This document shows, piece by piece, positions 41,312-61,581 of a stretch of DNA of 64,000 nucleotides (its first letter is position 1; the number at the start of each line of letters is the position of its first letter). The notes beneath the pieces were generated by a model. The model saw nothing but the letters and a program-made list of their open reading frames with translations. It did no database searches and was not told where the DNA came from. The position numbers and the translations under genes were made by a program. This DNA comes from a virus. Taxonomy: Duplodnaviria > Caudoviricetes. Location of the stretch: positions 1 through 64,000 of the IMG/VR virus record IMGVR_UViG_3300029288_000065. The stretch is one strand, 5' to 3'.

Positions 41312-43183
41312 ATGTCAGAAAGTATGATCCAACAGTTGTTATTACGATGTAAAGGTAGTTCTATATTCTTCATAGAAAATTTCTGTAAAGTAAAGCACCC
41401 AAAAGCTGGTATAATGCCATTTAATTTATTCAGTTACCAGAAAAGATCACTACAAGAATTCCGAAAACACAGGTTTAATTGTTATAAGAAAACTCGTCAA
41501 TGTGGTGTTTCGACATTGGCTGGATCGTTCGCACTTTGGTATGCCATGTTTTATAATCACAAGACAGTATTAATTGTCTCCAAACGTGATTTGGATGCTA
41601 CCGCTTTCCTTGATAAGAACATAAAATTCGTTTATGATCACCTTCCTGATGAATTCAAGAAGATTTATGGTGATCCACCTCCGGTTTATAATGAGCATAC
41701 TATAAAATTCCCGAATGGTTCTATGATCCAAAGCTTAACTTCCAGTCCGGATACATTACGATCAAATTCATCATCTCTGAACATTCTGGACGAAGTCGCG
41801 TTTATGCCTGATATGGATACCATGTGGTCAGGCGGTTATTCGACCTTGATGCATGGTGGTTCAGTAATAGCAATCTCCACGACAAATGGAATGGGAAATT
41901 GGTATCATCTAACCTGGGAGGATGCAGTCGCTGGAAAAAATGAATTCAATCCAATTGAAGTGAACTGGTGGGATATGGATTGGACTCTGGAATATACGGA
42001 CGAGTTTACTGGACAGACTCGTAAAATTGCACCACGTGATGGAATCAGAAAATGCGTTTCCAAAGAAGAAAGGAATATGTGGGGTCCATATTGGAGTCCA
42101 TGGCTCCAAGAGCAGTATAGAGCATTGCAACAAAGAGGTGAAGCTCACCTCTTTAGACAAGAAATTTTGGCTGAATTTATTGGTACAGGAAATACCGTGT
42201 TACCAGCAGAAGCACTTCTGAGAATTAGAGAAGATCTCCAAGATGAATATTCTAGAGTGAACAGAGTTGATTATACGCACCCAGCTACAGATGAGAAACT
42301 TGTTCTTGATTTTGAAGATCTTCTTTGGATCTGGAAGAAACCAGTAAAACCGACAGTACCAGTTGTTGAGAATGGAAGGATTATTAAACCTGGTATACCA
42401 GGCCATGCATATTCGATGGGGATTGACGTTTCATCTGGTGAAGCCGACGATTATTCAGCAATTGAGATAATTGACGTTGTTGAAAAGGAACAGGTGGCTG
42501 AGCTTAATATAAAAGTTATGCCAAATATTTTGGCATTCATGGTTGATTATTTGGCCAGATATTATAATATGGCTTATGTTGTACCAGAGCGAACTGGTAT
42601 GGGTGTTGGACTCTGTAACGACATTTATTATACGTTAGGGTACCCTAACGTTTATCGTATGAAGAGTCCAAGTGGTATTCTAAGTAAGAAAATTGGTTTT
42701 CCAACATCTCCAACTTATAAGCCAACATTAACAAAATGTCTTTTGGATTACTTGACTGAAGATGATCTGAAAATTTATAGTCGCAGGTTATTTGGTCAAC
42801 TTTCGATTTTTATTCATCTGGGAGGGAATAAAGTTGGTAATGTTGATGGACCTGGTAACCATGACGATTTATCTATTGGTTTTGCTTTGGCATTAATGGG
42901 GATTTTGGAAGCTGCTCAATCAGACCAGAGGCAGCTTATTCCTCAACATTATGTTCCTACTGATGATCCGACGATGTCAGTAAATCCGAAATCGTTGACT
43001 GATATGACGCAGTCAGGAGGTTTGGGTTGTTTGATGCCTATGGTACTTGGGAATGAAGTTTTTACTTATGAGACTCCTGAGGAGATGGTTCGGAAATTTC
43101 AGAATCAGATTGGTGGTACAATAGTAAAACCTCCGTCAAATGCAGTTGTACCGAGGAAACATGATATTATTAAATATAAGTAA
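41312..43183 (+). CDS. terminase large subunit (gp17-like)
   Basis: KTRQCGVST Walker A, ILDEVAF Walker B, ISTTNG, GIDVSSG, HDD. Confidence 0.95.
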   Translation: MSESMIQQLLLRCKGSSIFFIENFCKVKHPKAGIMPFNLFSYQKRSLQEFRKHRFNCYKKTRQCGVSTLAGSFALWYAMFYNHKTVLIVSKRDLDATAFLDKNIKFVYDHLPDEFKKIYGDPPPVYNEHTIKFPNGSMIQSLTSSPDTLRSNSSSLNILDEVAFMPDMDTMWSGGYSTLMHGGSVIAISTTNGMGNWYHLTWEDAVAGKNEFNPIEVNWWDMDWTLEYTDEFTGQTRKIAPRDGIRKCVSKEERNMWGPYWSPWLQEQYRALQQRGEAHLFRQEILAEFIGTGNTVLPAEALLRIREDLQDEYSRVNRVDYTHPATDEKLVLDFEDLLWIWKKPVKPTVPVVENGRIIKPGIPGHAYSMGIDVSSGEADDYSAIEIIDVVEKEQVAELNIKVMPNILAFMVDYLARYYNMAYVVPERTGMGVGLCNDIYYTLGYPNVYRMKSPSGILSKKIGFPTSPTYKPTLTKCLLDYLTEDDLKIYSRRLFGQLSIFIHLGGNKVGNVDGPGNHDDLSIGFALALMGILEAAQSDQRQLIPQHYVPTDDPTMSVNPKSLTDMTQSGGLGCLMPMVLGNEVFTYETPEEMVRKFQNQIGGTIVKPPSNAVVPRKHDIIKYK

Positions 43184-43227: not shown

Positions 43228-45060
43228 ATGCCACTACCTAATTGGCAATTATTTGATCGTTTGCGTGCATTTCTACGCAAGGCTAATTTGTTCCGACAGG
43301 ACAACTTATTCCAAGATCAAACTGCCCCAGATAGAATTATCAGCGGTGGAGATTTTATAGAATTCAGTAAACATGCAGGACTTCTGGAACAGACCAACCT
43401 CCAAATAAACAGACTGGAACGTTATAAAGACTATGATATGATGGATGAAGTTGGTGAGATTACTCTCGCGATGGATCTTTATGCTGATGAATCATCTCTA
43501 ATAGACCCAGAGCGAAAGCACGCAATCATAGTAAGATCGAAGAATAAGAAAATAAAGGAAGTTGTAGAAGACTTTCTATATAATACTCTGTTAATTGACA
43601 GAGATATCCGTCCAATGATTAGATATCTCTGCAAATATGGTGATTATGCTGCTGAAATGGTTCCTACGAAGAATCGTGATGGTTTGGCCTCCTTGAGATT
43701 CATAAACATCTACAATTTCACCAGAGTACAAACTAAGTTTGGTGACTTGGTTGGCTTCTATTATCAAGATCCAAATACGATGACTCCTTATTTTCTACAT
43801 CCTTGGCAAGTTGCCCATATGCGTTTGACAAGCTTTGAACAGATATATCATCCGTACGGAAAATCGCTTTTGGATGGTTCGCGAAAAGATTTCAAGCGTC
43901 TGCGTCTGATGGAAGATGCTGCGTTAATTTACAGAATAACACGCGCTCCTGAGAAAAGAATTTTCTCTATTCCAATTGGACAAATTCCTTCAAATCAGAT
44001 ATATATGTACTTGACTGAAATAGCAAGGCAATTTAAGAAACATAAATTCGTTGATCCTACGACTGGACAAGTAAATGAGAGATATAGTCCACTGATCCAG
44101 GAAGATGATTTCTTCCTTCCGAAGCGTCCAGATGGGACGGGACCAGAAGTTAGTACACTACCAGGTGCTCAGAATCTGGATCAGATTGAAGACATCCTTT
44201 ATTTCAAAAAGAAAATGATTGCAGGGTTAAAGATTCCGTTTAGCAGAGTTGGTATTGGTGAACAAACGGAAAGTGATGGTAGGTCTCTTTCGTCTGTTTC
44301 CCCTGAATTTGCCAAAGCTACGCAATGGGTCCAGCGCGAGATGGTTACTGGACTTCGCAAAGTTTGCGTAGTCCACTTGGCTTTACAGGGATATTCAATT
44401 CAGGAGATAAAGAGTTTTGATCTGTCTATGACTGCAGCGTCAGCCATTGATGAACTTTACCGGATTGAGACATGGAACACGCGTGCTGATATTATTGGTA
44501 CTCTAAAAGAATCCGGTTTATTCCCTGATGATTGGATTTTGGAGAGATTCACGGATATGACCCGTGATGAAATTGACCAACTTCAACGTGACAATGAAGA
44601 AAAGGCAGCTGTTCAAGCTGCCAGTCAAGAGCCGGCAGCTCCAGAAGATATTTTGACGATGGGTGAGGCTGTTGACGATGAAGATCAGAAGCTTATTAAT
44701 GAGTATAAGGATTATGAGAAGAGAATCTATGGTAGAAAGATTGTTATTCCAGATGAAGCGGAAAAGCCTTTGAAATATAGAAAAGATCCGATCTTTGAGA
44801 ATGCCTCTCTTGAATGGTATGTGAATAATAATGAGATAGATGGTCTTCCATCCAGAGATGAGAATACGTTATTGGTCGAATCGAAAGTTCCAATAAGTGA
44901 AATAAAGGAAGTACGGAAGCAGTATGAAATTCTTTTAAGTTATAATGGTGTACCAAACGAAAACATACAAAGGATGGCAAATTCGGTTGAAGAGGGGAAA
45001 CAAGTTCTTTCAGAGGATACAAGCGATCAGATACAGGAATCTGATCTCCCGCAAAAATAA
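43228..45060 (+). CDS. portal protein (gp20-like)
   Basis: LMEDAALIYRITRAPEKRIF, EDDFFLP, TLPGAQNL..IEDI.YF. Confidence 0.95.
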   Translation: MPLPNWQLFDRLRAFLRKANLFRQDNLFQDQTAPDRIISGGDFIEFSKHAGLLEQTNLQINRLERYKDYDMMDEVGEITLAMDLYADESSLIDPERKHAIIVRSKNKKIKEVVEDFLYNTLLIDRDIRPMIRYLCKYGDYAAEMVPTKNRDGLASLRFINIYNFTRVQTKFGDLVGFYYQDPNTMTPYFLHPWQVAHMRLTSFEQIYHPYGKSLLDGSRKDFKRLRLMEDAALIYRITRAPEKRIFSIPIGQIPSNQIYMYLTEIARQFKKHKFVDPTTGQVNERYSPLIQEDDFFLPKRPDGTGPEVSTLPGAQNLDQIEDILYFKKKMIAGLKIPFSRVGIGEQTESDGRSLSSVSPEFAKATQWVQREMVTGLRKVCVVHLALQGYSIQEIKSFDLSMTAASAIDELYRIETWNTRADIIGTLKESGLFPDDWILERFTDMTRDEIDQLQRDNEEKAAVQAASQEPAAPEDILTMGEAVDDEDQKLINEYKDYEKRIYGRKIVIPDEAEKPLKYRKDPIFENASLEWYVNNNEIDGLPSRDENTLLVESKVPISEIKEVRKQYEILLSYNGVPNENIQRMANSVEEGKQVLSEDTSDQIQESDLPQK

Positions 45061-48533: not shown

Positions 48534-49283
48534 ATGGTAAATACCCCTTCTACCAGGAATAGGATTGCAAGGATCCCGGTCATAAGCCGGGATCATATTT
48601 CTTTAACTGGTGAAATTCCCCAGGGATATACTCTTTTCCAGGATGATATTCTTTTTAAGATGTTGGATTTCAAGAAGGGTACGTTGAAGAATCATCCTCT
48701 TCTTGAGAGTATTGGTATCAAAGAAATTCCTGTTATGCGCTGCAAGGGTGTTTTCCAGAGAGCTGATGAGAAGAATGCCAATGGGAGAATTTACCCATTG
48801 GGGATTCTTAAAGAGGCTGTCAAGAGATTGGCGAAGCCGATTTCTGAACGTAGGGTAATGGGTGAATTTGATCATCCACCAGATGCAAAGATTCATCTTG
48901 ATAGAGTTTCTCATTTGGTAACCAATCTTTGGGCTGAAGACAAGACTGTTATGGGTGAGATTGAAGTTATTAATGATGATCGTTGTCCGTGTGGTAGTAT
49001 GCTGGCTTGTTATTTGGATCGTGGGATTCAGATTGGTATCAGTTCTCGTGGTGTTGGTGATATGGAGTTGGTTGTTGTTGAGGGTGAGGATGCATATCAG
49101 GTTCAGGATGGTTTTGAATTTATTACTTTTGATGCTGTTGCTGAACCCAGTGTTACTGGTACTCAGCTTAAGAAGTTGAATGAGGCCAAGGAGCGTCAGC
49201 GGGTTGCTGCACGCCAGGTTGCTTTGAGGGAAGCCAAGGAAAAAGTCCTAGCTGAAGAGGTTCGTCGGTTCTTCCGAAGCTAG
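48534..49283 (+). CDS. prohead protease (gp21-like)
   Basis: NANGRIYP, GEFDHP, ISSRGVG, FDAVAEPS. Confidence 0.93.
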   Translation: MVNTPSTRNRIARIPVISRDHISLTGEIPQGYTLFQDDILFKMLDFKKGTLKNHPLLESIGIKEIPVMRCKGVFQRADEKNANGRIYPLGILKEAVKRLAKPISERRVMGEFDHPPDAKIHLDRVSHLVTNLWAEDKTVMGEIEVINDDRCPCGSMLACYLDRGIQIGISSRGVGDMELVVVEGEDAYQVQDGFEFITFDAVAEPSVTGTQLKKLNEAKERQRVAARQVALREAKEKVLAEEVRRFFRS

Positions 49284-50086: not shown

Positions 50087-51649
50087 ATGGTAGTAAAGAA
50101 AACCCAGCATCTGACCAGCGCAACACCGGCTGGTGGGAATGACACACGGATGCAGAAACTCGTACTGGAATCCAAGCGGAACCAAATGGTTAACCGCTGG
50201 CAGCCAGTATTGGCAAAGTGCCGTGAAGTCCAGCCCAATAAGTACGGACTCATGGCAGCGGTGTTGGAAAACCAGCACGCCTACATGGAAAGCAAGAAGA
50301 AAGGTGGATTCCTCACAGAGGAAGCAACCACCACGGGCGATATTGCTGATTTCACCCGCTTTGCACTCCCGATGATCCGCAAGTCCTACCCGCGCCTCAT
50401 CGCCGATAACCTCGTTGGCGTTCAGCCGATGAGCAGCCCAGCCAGCTTGATCTTCTACATCCGCTATCGTTACGCCATCAGCAAGGGCCAGACGGTTGCC
50501 GGAACGCAGATCATGCGCCAGAATACTGCTCAGCAGTTTGCTCGGCAGAACGGTTGGGCGCTTGACCCATACTACAGCTCCCAGACCGTCAAGGGAGAAG
50601 ACCTTACCATCAACCCAGGTGGAATGGTCGTCGTGGGAACACTCCTCCACAAACCAGTTCTTGCTGGTACAGTGGTTGTTAACGTTTACGCATCAGACGT
50701 TGATAACTGCGAAGACGCAACCCCGTGTCTGCAGGTCACGTTCGATTCGGACGGTCTGCCTGAATTCGTAATCCCAGGCGACGGCTCGGACTGCCCAACA
50801 GTCACAGTTGATACCACCACCACTGGTGCCACTCGGTTCAACCACGAGACGGGCGCTGTAACAGTGACCCTCAGCGCTGGAGCATTCCCAGCCGGCTTCA
50901 TCGCCAGAGCGGACTACGAGTTCGATCTTGAGAACAACCCATTCCAGCCAGAAATCACACTGTCCATCGACAGTGACTCGGTTTCCGCTGTGACGCGTAA
51001 GCTCAAGACCAGCTGGTCCCTGGAAGCTGCCCAGGACCTGAAGTCCGTCCACAACATCGACGCAGAAGGCACGTTGACCGACCTCATGGCCGATGAAATG
51101 GTTGCTGAAATCGACCGCGAAATCATCAACGACTTGATCATCGCTGCCGCGATTCGTGCGACCCACAACTTCGCGACGGCTGCCGGTGCCTCAGTCAACT
51201 TCACAGACCGAAACATTGCGTTGCTCTACAAGGTCCTGGAAGTTGCAAACATCATCCACAGAACCACCCTCCGTGGTCCTGCAAACTGGATGGTGACCAG
51301 TGCGGATATCGCCAGCAAGTTCGAACAGCTGAACGATTTCCGTGGATCGGATGCTCTCGCCAACGAGGGTATCGATATCGGCATCACCTCTGCCGGTACG
51401 ATCCAGGGCAAGTTGAAGCTGTACAAGGACCCACTCTTCCCGAACTGCAAGATCCTGCTCGGATTCAAGGGGAACTCGGTTCTGGATTCGGGTTACTTCT
51501 ACGCTCCATACATCCCACTGCTCAGCACTCCGACCGTGCTGGACCCGAACAGCTTCACGCCGAATAAGGGAATTATGACCAGATACGGCAAGAAGCTCAT
51601 TGAGGATGGTGGCCTGTACTACGCCACTGTTAATGTAACAAACCTTTAA
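50087..51649 (+). CDS. major capsid protein (gp23-like)
   Basis: LIA..LVGVQPMSSP, TRKLKTSWSLEAAQDL..H.IDAE, EIDREII, YAPYIPL, GIMTRYG. Confidence 0.96.
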   Translation: MVVKKTQHLTSATPAGGNDTRMQKLVLESKRNQMVNRWQPVLAKCREVQPNKYGLMAAVLENQHAYMESKKKGGFLTEEATTTGDIADFTRFALPMIRKSYPRLIADNLVGVQPMSSPASLIFYIRYRYAISKGQTVAGTQIMRQNTAQQFARQNGWALDPYYSSQTVKGEDLTINPGGMVVVGTLLHKPVLAGTVVVNVYASDVDNCEDATPCLQVTFDSDGLPEFVIPGDGSDCPTVTVDTTTTGATRFNHETGAVTVTLSAGAFPAGFIARADYEFDLENNPFQPEITLSIDSDSVSAVTRKLKTSWSLEAAQDLKSVHNIDAEGTLTDLMADEMVAEIDREIINDLIIAAAIRATHNFATAAGASVNFTDRNIALLYKVLEVANIIHRTTLRGPANWMVTSADIASKFEQLNDFRGSDALANEGIDIGITSAGTIQGKLKLYKDPLFPNCKILLGFKGNSVLDSGYFYAPYIPLLSTPTVLDPNSFTPNKGIMTRYGKKLIEDGGLYYATVNVTNL

Positions 51650-51658
51650 GATCCAAAT

Positions 51659-51698
51659 GAAGAACCCCGGCAAAAACCGGGGTTCTTCTGTATTTGAT
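51659..51698 (+). terminator. intrinsic terminator after the capsid gene (copy 1)
   Basis: GAAGAACCCCGG/CCGGGGTTCTTC. Confidence 0.8.
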
Positions 51699-53943: not shown

Positions 53944-53949
53944 GTTAAG

Positions 53950-53988
53950 GAAGAACCCCGGTTTTGCCGGGGTTCTTTTGTATTTGAT
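53950..53988 (+). terminator. intrinsic terminator (copy 2 of 51659-51698)
   Basis: same stem and TGTATTTGAT tail; loop is reverse-complemented. Confidence 0.8.
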
Positions 53989-54432: not shown

Positions 54433-54736
54433 TCTAGAATTCTTTGAACATGCTAAGATTTTAAAGAGTGATCCTCATATTTTACTTTCGTCTTGTCCGC
54501 AGTTTTTGATTAACCATCCGTCTTTTAAGGCTATTGTTTCTGATGGTAGACGTGTTATTCCTTTGATTTTGCGTGATTTTGAAGTTGACGAGATGTTTTC
54601 TTGGGATATTGTTCTTGAACATATTGTTGGTTTTTGTCCTTGTCCGGTTGAGCATCGTGGTGTTGTTGATAAGATTCGACAGGATTGGTTGGAGTGGGGT
54701 AGGAAGCGTGGTTTCCTTACGGAGAATATGGGATGA
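54425..54736 (+). CDS. conserved hypothetical helical protein
   Basis: HPSFKAIV..G..VIPLIL..W..L..I.G..P...RG....WLEWG pattern. Confidence 0.6.
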   Translation: MTDLEFFEHAKILKSDPHILLSSCPQFLINHPSFKAIVSDGRRVIPLILRDFEVDEMFSWDIVLEHIVGFCPCPVEHRGVVDKIRQDWLEWGRKRGFLTENMG

Positions 54737-55098
54737 CAACAACTCCGTCAAAGAATAATGATGCTTTTGAGGTATCATTATCTTTTAGGCAAGAGATTAT
54801 TTGTTCATTTTCTATTAGGATTAATAATCATTCTATTCATTGCGATCTATGTTTAAAAGATGATTATGATTATAACAATCCAGATAATGATCCGATTTTT
54901 TTGATTCAGTCTTGGTATGGACATTGGGAGGTAAATTTATCTAGTAAGGAGGTTATTTTTGTTGATTGGGGTTTTCATCCTAAATTAATTATTAGGAATT
55001 TGAGAATAGAAGAAAAGAGACGTTTGATTAGAAAGTGTAAGAAGTTCTTACGGAGAAATAAGAAGTGGCATTGGGTCATGGGGGTGGATTATGTTTGA
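54733..55098 (+). CDS. hypothetical protein (paralog of the C-terminal domain of 56870-57256)
   Basis: YDYNNPDND..W.VNLS..EKRRLIRKCKKFLR. Confidence 0.6.
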   Translation: MTTTPSKNNDAFEVSLSFRQEIICSFSIRINNHSIHCDLCLKDDYDYNNPDNDPIFLIQSWYGHWEVNLSSKEVIFVDWGFHPKLIIRNLRIEEKRRLIRKCKKFLRRNKKWHWVMGVDYV

Positions 55099-56086: not shown

Positions 56087-56389
56087 ATGACGGATGCGAT
56101 TCGTAGTCTGCAGAACAGGATTAAGATACGTTTGAGGAATAAAAAGATACGGACACCGAAGAAGATTATTATTGGTAATCATGAAATTATAATTGAAGAT
56201 TGTTTCTGGGAAAGTTATGATACTGTTGTTGTTATTTTGAATTGTAATATTATCCATAGAGTACATCAGCATGGGGTACGAGTATCAATTCGTGGGTTAA
56301 AACCAGTTAATATGTATTATTATGAACCAGGGAGGAAGAGTGATTATTTACCTGTAAATGATGAAATTATTAAAGTATTGTTCATTTGA
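56087..56389 (+). CDS. hypothetical protein
   Basis: SD AAGGAG; upstream GTATTTTA. Confidence 0.55.
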   Translation: MTDAIRSLQNRIKIRLRNKKIRTPKKIIIGNHEIIIEDCFWESYDTVVVILNCNIIHRVHQHGVRVSIRGLKPVNMYYYEPGRKSDYLPVNDEIIKVLFI

Positions 56390-56456
56390 CGCTTAATGAA
56401 CTTAATAATATTCTTCCTATATATCCATTGGTTCACAGTCATTTTAGGAAGAAATA

Positions 56457-56873
56457 ATGACTATTGAAGAATTTAATATCAAAGCAGGTTGCCAAGTGCC
56501 ATGGACGAGAGGTACTTGGAATGGTCAATTTTTGTCTTTGGATGATACTCCAGCAGGTGATTTCAAACCGGAAGAAATTTGGCGAGTATTGGCAGTCAAT
56601 AATTCAGGTGGTGATTGGGATGGTTTCGGTGCAGCAGTCATACAATTGAAGGATGGAAGGTGGGTGGCGTGGGAATCAAGTTGGGGTCCAACGGGAAGTG
56701 GTTTTAGCGAAGATGCTTATGGTGGTGATGCGAATGTTTATTTCTCATCGACTATGGAAGGAGCAATAATGCTTGGGTTGACTCCTGTTAGTAGAGATTT
56801 ATTGGGTTTGGACACGGAAAATTGGTCAGATCCAAATGCTAAGTTGCCGGTCTTGGAAGAGATTACACCATGA
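56457..56873 (+). CDS. hypothetical protein
   Basis: coupled to next gene; LKDGRWVAWE..WGPTG. Confidence 0.6.
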   Translation: MTIEEFNIKAGCQVPWTRGTWNGQFLSLDDTPAGDFKPEEIWRVLAVNNSGGDWDGFGAAVIQLKDGRWVAWESSWGPTGSGFSEDAYGGDANVYFSSTMEGAIMLGLTPVSRDLLGLDTENWSDPNAKLPVLEEITP

Positions 56874-57256
56874 ATGTTGGTTCGTTTTCGAGATTTGTTT
56901 TCCCTTTAATCAGGAAGTCTTATCCTGCTCTGATTGCTAACCAACTTGTGGGTGTTCAACCAATGACTCCAACAGTTAAAGATTTTGGAATTTTTAAGTT
57001 AAAGATTGATCGTCAGAGGTATAATATTGCTGTTTCTTTGTTGGAAAAGTATGATTATTCTAATCCTAGTAATGATATACTTGTTGAAGCTCATTTTGGT
57101 GCGTGGTTTTGGAAAGTGAATGTTTCTCGTGGATGTGTTCAATGTGTCTCGAAGTTTATAAATGGCCCAAACAAGAAAGTTTTGTCGGTTGCTGAGAGGA
57201 GAGAATTGGTTGCTGGCTGTAGAAAAGCCCTAAGGAAACTTCATGATAAAGATTAG
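56870..57256 (+). CDS. chimeric protein: capsid Gol-equivalent peptide plus a 54733-like domain
   Basis: FSRFVFPLIRKSYPALIANQLVGVQPM is 20/27 identical to the capsid segment encoded from 50351. Confidence 0.75.
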   Translation: MNVGSFSRFVFPLIRKSYPALIANQLVGVQPMTPTVKDFGIFKLKIDRQRYNIAVSLLEKYDYSNPSNDILVEAHFGAWFWKVNVSRGCVQCVSKFINGPNKKVLSVAERRELVAGCRKALRKLHDKD

Positions 57257-60681: not shown

Positions 60682-61581
60682 ATGCGACGAATCAAAAGAT
60701 TCACCAAGGCTCTGAAACTTGCTGGGAAATCTCTATTATGTTGCAAGAAAACTTCAACAGATCCTGTCATTGTTCCTAGCACTGGAGATACGAAAATGAG
60801 CGACAAGATCCTCCTGGTTGGAATAAATGCCTATCCAAGTTGTCCATTGGCTGGATGTGTGAACGACGTTACAGATATGGCTAATTTTTTGGTGACGAAA
60901 TGTGGTGTTTTGGAAGATAATATCCGTCTCTTGGTAGATGGTCGTGCCACTACTGGAAACATTCTGGATCGGTTGAATTGGTTGACTCAGGCAAGCCCTG
61001 GTGATCGTGTTCTTTTTCATTATTCTGGTCATGGTGCGCAGGTCCCAGCGAGAAATTCTTCCGGTGAGATTGACCAACTTTCTGAGTGTATTTGTCCAGT
61101 TGATTTTGATTGGTCTGAGCAGCGTATGATTATTGACAAGCAATTTGTTGAAATTTTTAAGAAAATTCCACCAGGTGTTAGATTCTCTTGGATTAGTGAT
61201 TCTTGTCATAGTGGGGATTTGGATCGTGGATTGACCAAGGGGAATTCCAAGGTTCTTGGAATTAGAAGATTCCCCATCCCTGCTGATATTGCTTGGAGGC
61301 AGAGGATTGCTAAGAAGAAAGCTTTGCGTGCTATGGTTGGTAATACGCTGGATGTTGGATATATTTCTGGTTGTATGGATAATCAGACATCGGCTGATGC
61401 TGAATTTGGTGGTAAGGCAAATGGTGCATTAACATATTTCTTACTGCGAAATTTGGGAAATATGTTACAATCGCCAATTTCTTCGGTTACAAATAAGGTT
61501 ATTTCTGATTTGCAGTCTTCTGGTTATGAGCAAACTCCTACGTGTTCTGGAGCGAGAAAAGATTTGGCTTTCTTATCCTAG
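60682..61581 (+). CDS. metacaspase (peptidase C14); alternative start 60796
   Basis: LLVGINAY, L.GCVND, HYSGHG, SDSCHSG, GALTY. Confidence 0.92.
   Translation: MRRIKRFTKALKLAGKSLLCCKKTSTDPVIVPSTGDTKMSDKILLVGINAYPSCPLAGCVNDVTDMANFLVTKCGVLEDNIRLLVDGRATTGNILDRLNWLTQASPGDRVLFHYSGHGAQVPARNSSGEIDQLSECICPVDFDWSEQRMIIDKQFVEIFKKIPPGVRFSWISDSCHSGDLDRGLTKGNSKVLGIRRFPIPADIAWRQRIAKKKALRAMVGNTLDVGYISGCMDNQTSADAEFGGKANGALTYFLLRNLGNMLQSPISSVTNKVISDLQSSGYEQTPTCSGARKDLAFLS

Follow-up and report, generated by a model that had tools for sequence, protein, structure and literature searches.

The 64-kb window analyzed here opens a 233,959-bp record (G000) from an uncultured T4-like jumbo phage, classed as linear and 89% complete. 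It contains a T4-like head module, with the terminase gene at 41312, the portal gene at 43228, the prohead protease gene at 48534, and the Gp23 capsid gene listed in Table 1. The gene studied here is a separate ORF that follows the intact capsid gene at a distance of 5.2 kb; its start overlaps the upstream stop (ATGA), and a purine-rich, Shine-Dalgarno (SD)-like stretch lies ~10 nt 5′ of it. Only two places in the genome match the capsid profile, namely the capsid gene and this ORF. A second assembly (L004) holds an identical copy of the gene. The sole gap 5′ of the pair formed by this gene and its upstream neighbor contains a sigma70-like site; the region holds 62 such sites compared with 43 in shuffles.

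Table 1. Features of the locus (positions refer to the 64-kb window)
Feature	Position	Strand	Basis or remarks
Accessory gene, 128 aa	56870..57256	+	Capsid-derived N-terminal tail and carrier domain; orthologs P0002, P0003
Copy of capsid residues 85–116	56873..56968	+	N-arm helix and strand into E-loop; T4 gp23 87–118, most of Gol
Carrier domain	56984..57253	+	Five β-strands and C-terminal helix; pLDDT 70–93; dN 0.33 / dS 0.96
DP-type motif (Y-S-N-P) in the accessory gene	57056..57067	+	Residues 63–66
Intact Gp23-family major capsid gene, 520 aa	50087..51649	+	Pfam PF07068 E 5e-78; T4 gp23 E 2e-52
Source segment within capsid gene, residues 85–116	50339..50434	+	Alignment to copy
Paralogous carrier without recognizable capsid piece	54733..55098	+	Paralogy to the accessory gene
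Sigma70-like site TTGACG-17-TATTCT	56386..56414	+	Weak, 9/12 matches
Upstream gene overlapping the start of the accessory gene	56457..56873	+	Directly upstream of the ortholog in L001 too, 77% identical

Two other features of the neighborhood were observed. A caspase-like peptidase (Pfam C14, E 1e-27) is encoded at 60682–61581 (+), ~3.4 kb downstream of the gene, and is kept in a syntenic relative (L001 4911–5630, 71%). Two near-identical terminator hairpins with differing loops (51659–51688 and 53949–53979) flank a methyltransferase-like gene (51752) and ORF 53254, which suggests that these two genes form an inserted unit. No close cultured relative of the phage was found, and the only close match in species genomes was a capsid 75% identical to that of the window, on a 17.9-kb contig (L215) that is binned with a Promethearchaeota (archaeal) genome and is probably mis-binned.

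[quoted passage not shown] All three points were borne out. Residues 6–32 equal capsid residues 89–115 (codons from 50351) at 20 of 27 positions, whereas the best 27-residue match in 200 shuffles was 10 (mean 7.8), and a genome-wide tblastn search linked capsid and copy with an E value of 8e-11. Weaker similarity spans residues 2–33, which correspond to capsid residues 85–116 with 63% identity across 32 residues, and the Pfam Gp23 profile matches residues 4–47 (profile positions 2–43 of 376). Positions 10–40 of the peptide profile align to T4 gp23 95–125 (E 1e-7). Residues 9–33 cover gp23 94–118, which is most of the 29-residue Gol (gp23 about 94–122), and over residues 10–33 the copy and T4 are identical at 11 of 24 positions. 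The complete HK97 fold, with its A and P domains, is absent from the protein, the rest of which models as an unrelated sheet-plus-helix domain. A broken or truncated capsid gene was rejected as an explanation, given that the gene is a whole ORF, is under selection, and lies near an intact capsid gene.

Relative to the capsid gene, the synonymous sites of the copy are saturated (pS 0.90 versus pN 0.25), and the match must therefore be old and maintained at the protein level; the saturation also led us to reject recent duplication or gene conversion. The codon contrast noted previously is real, with a GC3 of 0.33 in the copy versus 0.81 in the capsid segment. Low GC3 is the norm in this genome (portal 0.34, terminase 0.31; range for portal, terminase, and accessory genes 0.29–0.41), so that the low value of the copy says nothing on timing. 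Codon bias was accordingly rejected as an indicator of early timing, the portal and terminase genes being equally AT-rich. As a separate observation, the capsid gene as a whole has a GC3 of 0.67 versus 0.29–0.41 for the portal, terminase, and accessory genes, possibly reflecting codon adaptation to a more GC-rich host.

The protein was modeled with AlphaFold2 on the basis of six sequences, a shallow alignment, so that disorder in the model is to be read as a prediction. Residues 38–127 form the strands and helix of the carrier, whereas residues 1–35 are unstructured (pLDDT about 39), and the piece is not packed on the carrier. From this model, the piece is predicted to be a floppy N-terminal tail; it is unable to form a capsid subunit. 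Comparison of the carrier with PDB, BFVD, and Atlas gave no distinctive match (best Z 6.1) and no family or fold assignment. The carrier belongs to an expanded set of small proteins in this genome with a hydrophobic-x-[DN]-P motif (the DP motif), which occurs in 64 of 238 small ORFs compared with 12 expected from shuffles. The motif mostly precedes an amphipathic helix; in a minority of cases, including the present gene, it is found mid-domain, before a strand.

Two orthologs share the build of the protein, namely P0002 (L001), which is 57% identical and syntenic with the same upstream neighbor, and P0003 (L093); scans beyond these two found no further orthologs. Neutral evolution of the piece can be dismissed, as it is under purifying selection between orthologs with a dN/dS of 0.17–0.23. 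The values of dN and dS were 0.14 and 0.87 for the comparison with P0002 (p = 3e-4) and 0.20 and 0.87 for that with P0003 (p = 0.005); the P0002–P0003 pair was not significant (p = 0.09). For the carrier, the same comparisons gave 0.33/0.96 and 0.43/0.87, and selection on the piece was at least as strong as that on the carrier in two of the three pairs.

As proposed earlier, the rest of the protein is paralogous to ORF 54733 (E 1e-7), which is without a recognizable capsid piece. An apparent ortholog of ORF 54733 lies directly upstream of P0003 in L093, where the contig has only its C-terminal 48 aa. A third carrier paralog was found outside the window, at genome positions 158350–158727 (−). 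Its N terminus is collinear with the second (C-terminal) half of the piece, in degenerate form, and ranks second among 238 small-ORF N termini, with a low absolute score; judged by this alignment, it is a probable decayed copy of the piece. In another carrier homolog, P0004 (L094 4908–5258), the frame stays open 5′ of the called start, and a strong SD accompanies an ATG in a different frame; this homolog is possibly a decayed or frameshifted version.

To trace the origin of the copy, we compared its residues with those of 64 capsids of its own lineage and 47 other Gp23 capsids. The copy carries the own-lineage marks R91, K99, and S100, which are near-absent elsewhere, and the capsid gene of the window is of the donor lineage. 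At four other positions (G87, F94, N107, and T116), the copy has the residue common in other lineages, where the 64 own-lineage capsids are fixed otherwise. Taken together, these patterns indicate that the copy is not tracking the present capsid. Most copies with K99 share G87, F94, and T116 despite having different carriers, and the copy in L206 follows its present capsid closely; from these differing residue patterns, there were probably at least two captures of the piece. The older module either predates the capsid changes or was pulled toward a family-wide form. The piece was thus copied long ago from the capsid gene of this phage lineage, joined to a multiplied carrier, and kept by selection.

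Similar fusions exist elsewhere, as the preliminary description had anticipated. About 40 non-capsid proteins, classified by eye and many of them from short contigs, bear the same piece on unrelated carriers. The piece is found at the N terminus, following a membrane helix, ahead of an SH3-like domain, at the C terminus after a start resembling the capsid leader and then an inserted domain, and in several singleton arrangements. Several fusions keep leader and Gol, with cleaved N-terminal leader motifs being retained in P0034 and L136. Conservation among the copies fades near the C-terminal end of Gol, a trend biased by the search. Four fusions were checked, and each is a complete ORF surrounded by small accessory genes. 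For one of these N-arm genes, an intact capsid gene with 84% identity to that of the window is found ~10 kb away; the gene adjoining the N-arm gene ends in the C-terminal 55 residues of the capsid, and a third short frame corresponds to segment ~288–317. The occurrence of the same piece on unrelated carriers and in varied positions suggests that it acts as a portable ligand. Second copies of the piece are rare in cultured phages, of which 1949 records match the piece at 1958 places, and a peptide-alignment scan of viral contigs returned 80 loci, all of them true capsid genes.

Two arrangements stand out in these contigs. One phage (L088 3456–4073, 5001–5549, and 6864–7193; L091 1–1362) has an intact capsid gene and three different capsid pieces, the pieces being no more than 4 kb apart, and in L136 (16469–17008 and 19823–20488) the N-arm segment is seemingly divided between two genes, with the leader plus first half in one and the second half in the other.

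The placement of the piece bears on whether it could serve to anchor the carrier on or in the prohead, with packaging and delivery at the next infection. In T4, the segment is oriented toward the inside of the prohead (PMC9546572), and a short N-terminal signal loads T4 internal proteins (PMC9958956), which would suit a piece that is N-terminal and predicted to be flexible here. However, the signal used by T4 is a 10-residue sequence of its own and not a capsid copy, many copies of the piece are C-terminal or follow a membrane helix, and the present copy has drifted from its cognate capsid at four fixed positions, which makes docking on the virion very unlikely.

We searched 23 related records with six profiles built from capsid genes only. 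Strong extra copies were found in four of the 23 records for the N-arm, in two for segment 283–326, and in four for segment 440–485. The spine helix profile gave one weak match, the extreme C terminus gave a weak match only, in a 23-codon frame, and no extra copy of the A-domain segment was found in the 23 records. Two complete genomes (G003 and G004) have all three main pieces, in separate small genes, and three of five complete relatives have no detectable capsid piece. Some copies hold only about 24 residues. The carriers often come from locally expanded sets, such as DP-motif proteins (L206, L208, P0139) or a Cys/His-rich domain that interrupts the capsid piece midway. Pieces of portal, terminase, and sheath were found neither in the five complete relatives nor in G000, although these single-protein searches are less sensitive, and the idea that G000 keeps pieces of several virion proteins as a panel was rejected, only capsid having been found. 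Overall, the piece is an old, selected, dispensable, and portable capsid segment on an expanded carrier.

Side observations from the same records concern other frames. Two ORFs of G004 (L213 7824–8039 (−) and 798–1229 (−)) have unusual builds: a capsid piece is split by a Cys/His-rich domain, with about ten copies of this domain in the same 9 kb, and another ORF joins, in inverted order, a spine-helix piece and the final part of the N-arm piece. Four further loci (G003 245664–248996, G004 165828–169418, G018 108349–110163, and G004 224073–224342) comprise terminase frames of 1137–1231 aa and a 642-aa protease frame, which carry large intein-like insertions, and a diverged 144-aa protease-like paralog.

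Another reading is that the pieces have no capsid-related function and are scraps captured by recombination, either kept as structural filler of new small proteins or decaying. These genomes shuffle short modules freely, conserved segments are the easiest to detect, and the carrier paralogs show decay (158350–158727) or absence (54733) of the piece. Scraps of this kind would not be expected to show a pN of 0.25 with saturated pS relative to the capsid or a dN/dS of 0.17–0.23 between orthologs, nor to keep the same residues across many carriers while remaining unpacked on the carrier in the model, and no portal, terminase, or sheath scraps were found. We consider this reading highly improbable.

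The survey also weakens the idea that the copy is special because it contains Gol, as capsid segments 278–321 and about 445–482 are copied at similar rates. We know of no link between these two segments and EF-Tu. By analogy with T4, the piece might recruit EF-Tu by binding EF-Tu-GDP as Gol does, so that host translation is damped or EF-Tu is drawn to the carrier. Domains II and III of EF-Tu are bound by Gol, which inhibits the GTPase, and the first quarter of gp23 gives tighter binding (PMC3014915). The homology to gp23 95–125, the 11 of 24 residues identical to T4, the fusions that keep leader and Gol, and the search-biased fading of conservation near the Gol C-terminal end are consistent with such binding. 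On the other hand, the copying of other capsid segments would remain unexplained, the third paralog keeps the C-terminal half of the piece only, and a minor protein cannot titrate a factor that makes up 6–10% of the Escherichia coli proteome. Recruitment of EF-Tu is thus decidedly unlikely. The N-arm copies make an old question testable, namely whether Gol–EF-Tu binding is general among T4-like phages.

The identity of the copied segments (85–124, 278–321, and 445–482), which are, according to the established anatomy of the HK97 fold, P-domain and E-loop stem parts that pair at long range, leads to an alternative in which the target is the capsid itself. The piece would swap into the folding monomer or compete for scaffold or portal contacts, and would thus poison head assembly of co-infecting relatives or adjust the size of the phage's own heads. 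The copied segments have low confidence in a shallow capsid model, a weak indication; this model is too poor for reading contacts. In T4, gp23 66–105 is flexible in the prohead and probably touches the scaffold core, and the size mutants A94V and G97S lie in the segment (PMC9546572). Some fusions retain cleaved leader motifs (P0034, L136), the other-lineage residues could widen the target range, and phage-encoded assembly blockers exist, Tab being one (PMC10884400). Against this, 63% identity to the phage's own segment leads one to expect self-poisoning unless timing or an antidote prevents it, and no lysogenic state is shown for G000, though three relatives are classed as provirus. Moreover, the piece must compete with the most abundant late protein, and some copies have only about 24 residues. 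We therefore regard a capsid-directed inhibitor or tuner as unlikely; if true, it would be a new kind of capsid-assembly inhibitor.

We tentatively favor a different function, plausible if somewhat short of probable, in which the piece is a candidate decoy that does not assemble and that engages host proteins able to read capsid segments in unfolded form. The piece would be a stand-in for capsid protein still being made or folded. A host protein, being either a defense sensor or an EF-Tu or chaperone monitored by a sensor, would read the segment as a linear motif, and the piece would occupy this reader without completing activation. The carrier would then block the next step or dock the complex elsewhere through its DP motif. 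Phages would differ in the pieces they carry, or carry none, since hosts differ in what is read. Partners of such a mimic may be host proteins (EF-Tu in T4, chaperones, or coupled sensors) or the capsid or scaffold.

A host-directed decoy is favored by the patchy distribution, the capsid-only pattern, the portability of the piece, and its failure to track the cognate capsid, although an ancient capture, made before these positions changed, would account equally well for the four non-own residues. The three complete relatives without the piece argue against a core assembly factor. The copied segments are parts of the conserved HK97-fold core. It is established that capsid proteins trigger defenses (PMC9712102; 10.64898/2026.01.04.697583). 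In T4, the equivalent segment suffices by itself to bind a host protein (PMC3014915). In the one characterized case, however, free T4 Gol switches Lit on, not off (PMC3014915), so that blocking would need to be done by the carrier. Also against a decoy, Avs7, the sensor for which a structure has been resolved, wraps around the folded capsid monomer, chiefly its A-domain. The folded surface read by Avs7 is beyond what a 32-mer can mimic, whereas the pieces can imitate unfolded capsid protein. Finally, early expression rests on a single weak promoter match. Of the capsid-mimic module originally envisaged, a selected, recurrent, and portable element thus stands, whereas a Gol-specific role is weakened. 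A broader version, in which Gp23-type jumbo phages keep a panel of capsid pieces (N-arm/Gol, E-loop return strand, and GYFYAPY strand) on expanded carriers as candidate epitope decoys, is possible but doubtful. If it holds, each piece would point to a yet unnamed capsid sensor and provide the bait to isolate it.

Several known systems resemble the present one in part. The homologous segment in T4, studied in the exclusion system of e14 Lit protease and EF-Tu (PMC3014915), is likewise short, separable from the capsid fold, and the most conserved part of Gp23 proteins. However, Gol in T4 is a stretch of the capsid chain itself and activates defense, whereas the copy, which is without the last four Gol positions, is found in a separate accessory gene on a carrier. 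A precedent for a decoy is DSAD1 (anti-DSR2, phages phi3T and SPbeta), a small phage protein at the sensor site of a tail tube trigger; it competes for an overlapping site (PMC11087589) and is not known to be a copy of the trigger, whereas the present piece is literally part of a structural gene. Like DSAD1, the present gene is small, accessory, and patchy in distribution (N-arm copies in 4/23 records and none in 3/5 complete relatives). Tab and Tai, which provide a precedent for interference with assembly, are small mobile-element proteins acting on virion assembly (PMC10884400, PMC11364771); they owe their names to the blocking of tail assembly, and their genes reside in prophages, islands, or hosts. 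The T4 vertex protein gp24 and full-length Gp23 paralogs are also second genes derived from a capsid gene, and gp24 is matched by the capsid profile; gp24, however, keeps the whole HK97 fold and is structural, whereas the present gene holds about 6% of the capsid chain. To our knowledge, none of the Tab or Tai proteins is made up of segments copied from a capsid.

Few proteins trigger bacterial immunity as often as capsid proteins do, and phages have difficulty altering them. If the decoy reading is true, parts of its own capsid copied into side genes would give a phage a counter-measure undescribed in the literature found. No description of capsid-piece genes was found in a literature coverage that largely excludes subscription journals; the capsid-piece accessory genes of Gp23-type jumbo phages are real and, within this coverage, undescribed. 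The additions made here are the survey of capsid-only segments within one lineage and the mosaic origin of the copy. The copied pieces mark capsid segments that would meet a partner outside the finished shell, each being a ready bait for that partner. In practical terms, capsid-piece genes attract false annotations, as illustrated by the non-capsid fusion P0047, which is annotated as “major capsid protein.” In L087 and L090, a short terminal tag resembling (T/S)VLD.LA is common to the ends of many small genes and is also present on some capsid-piece proteins.
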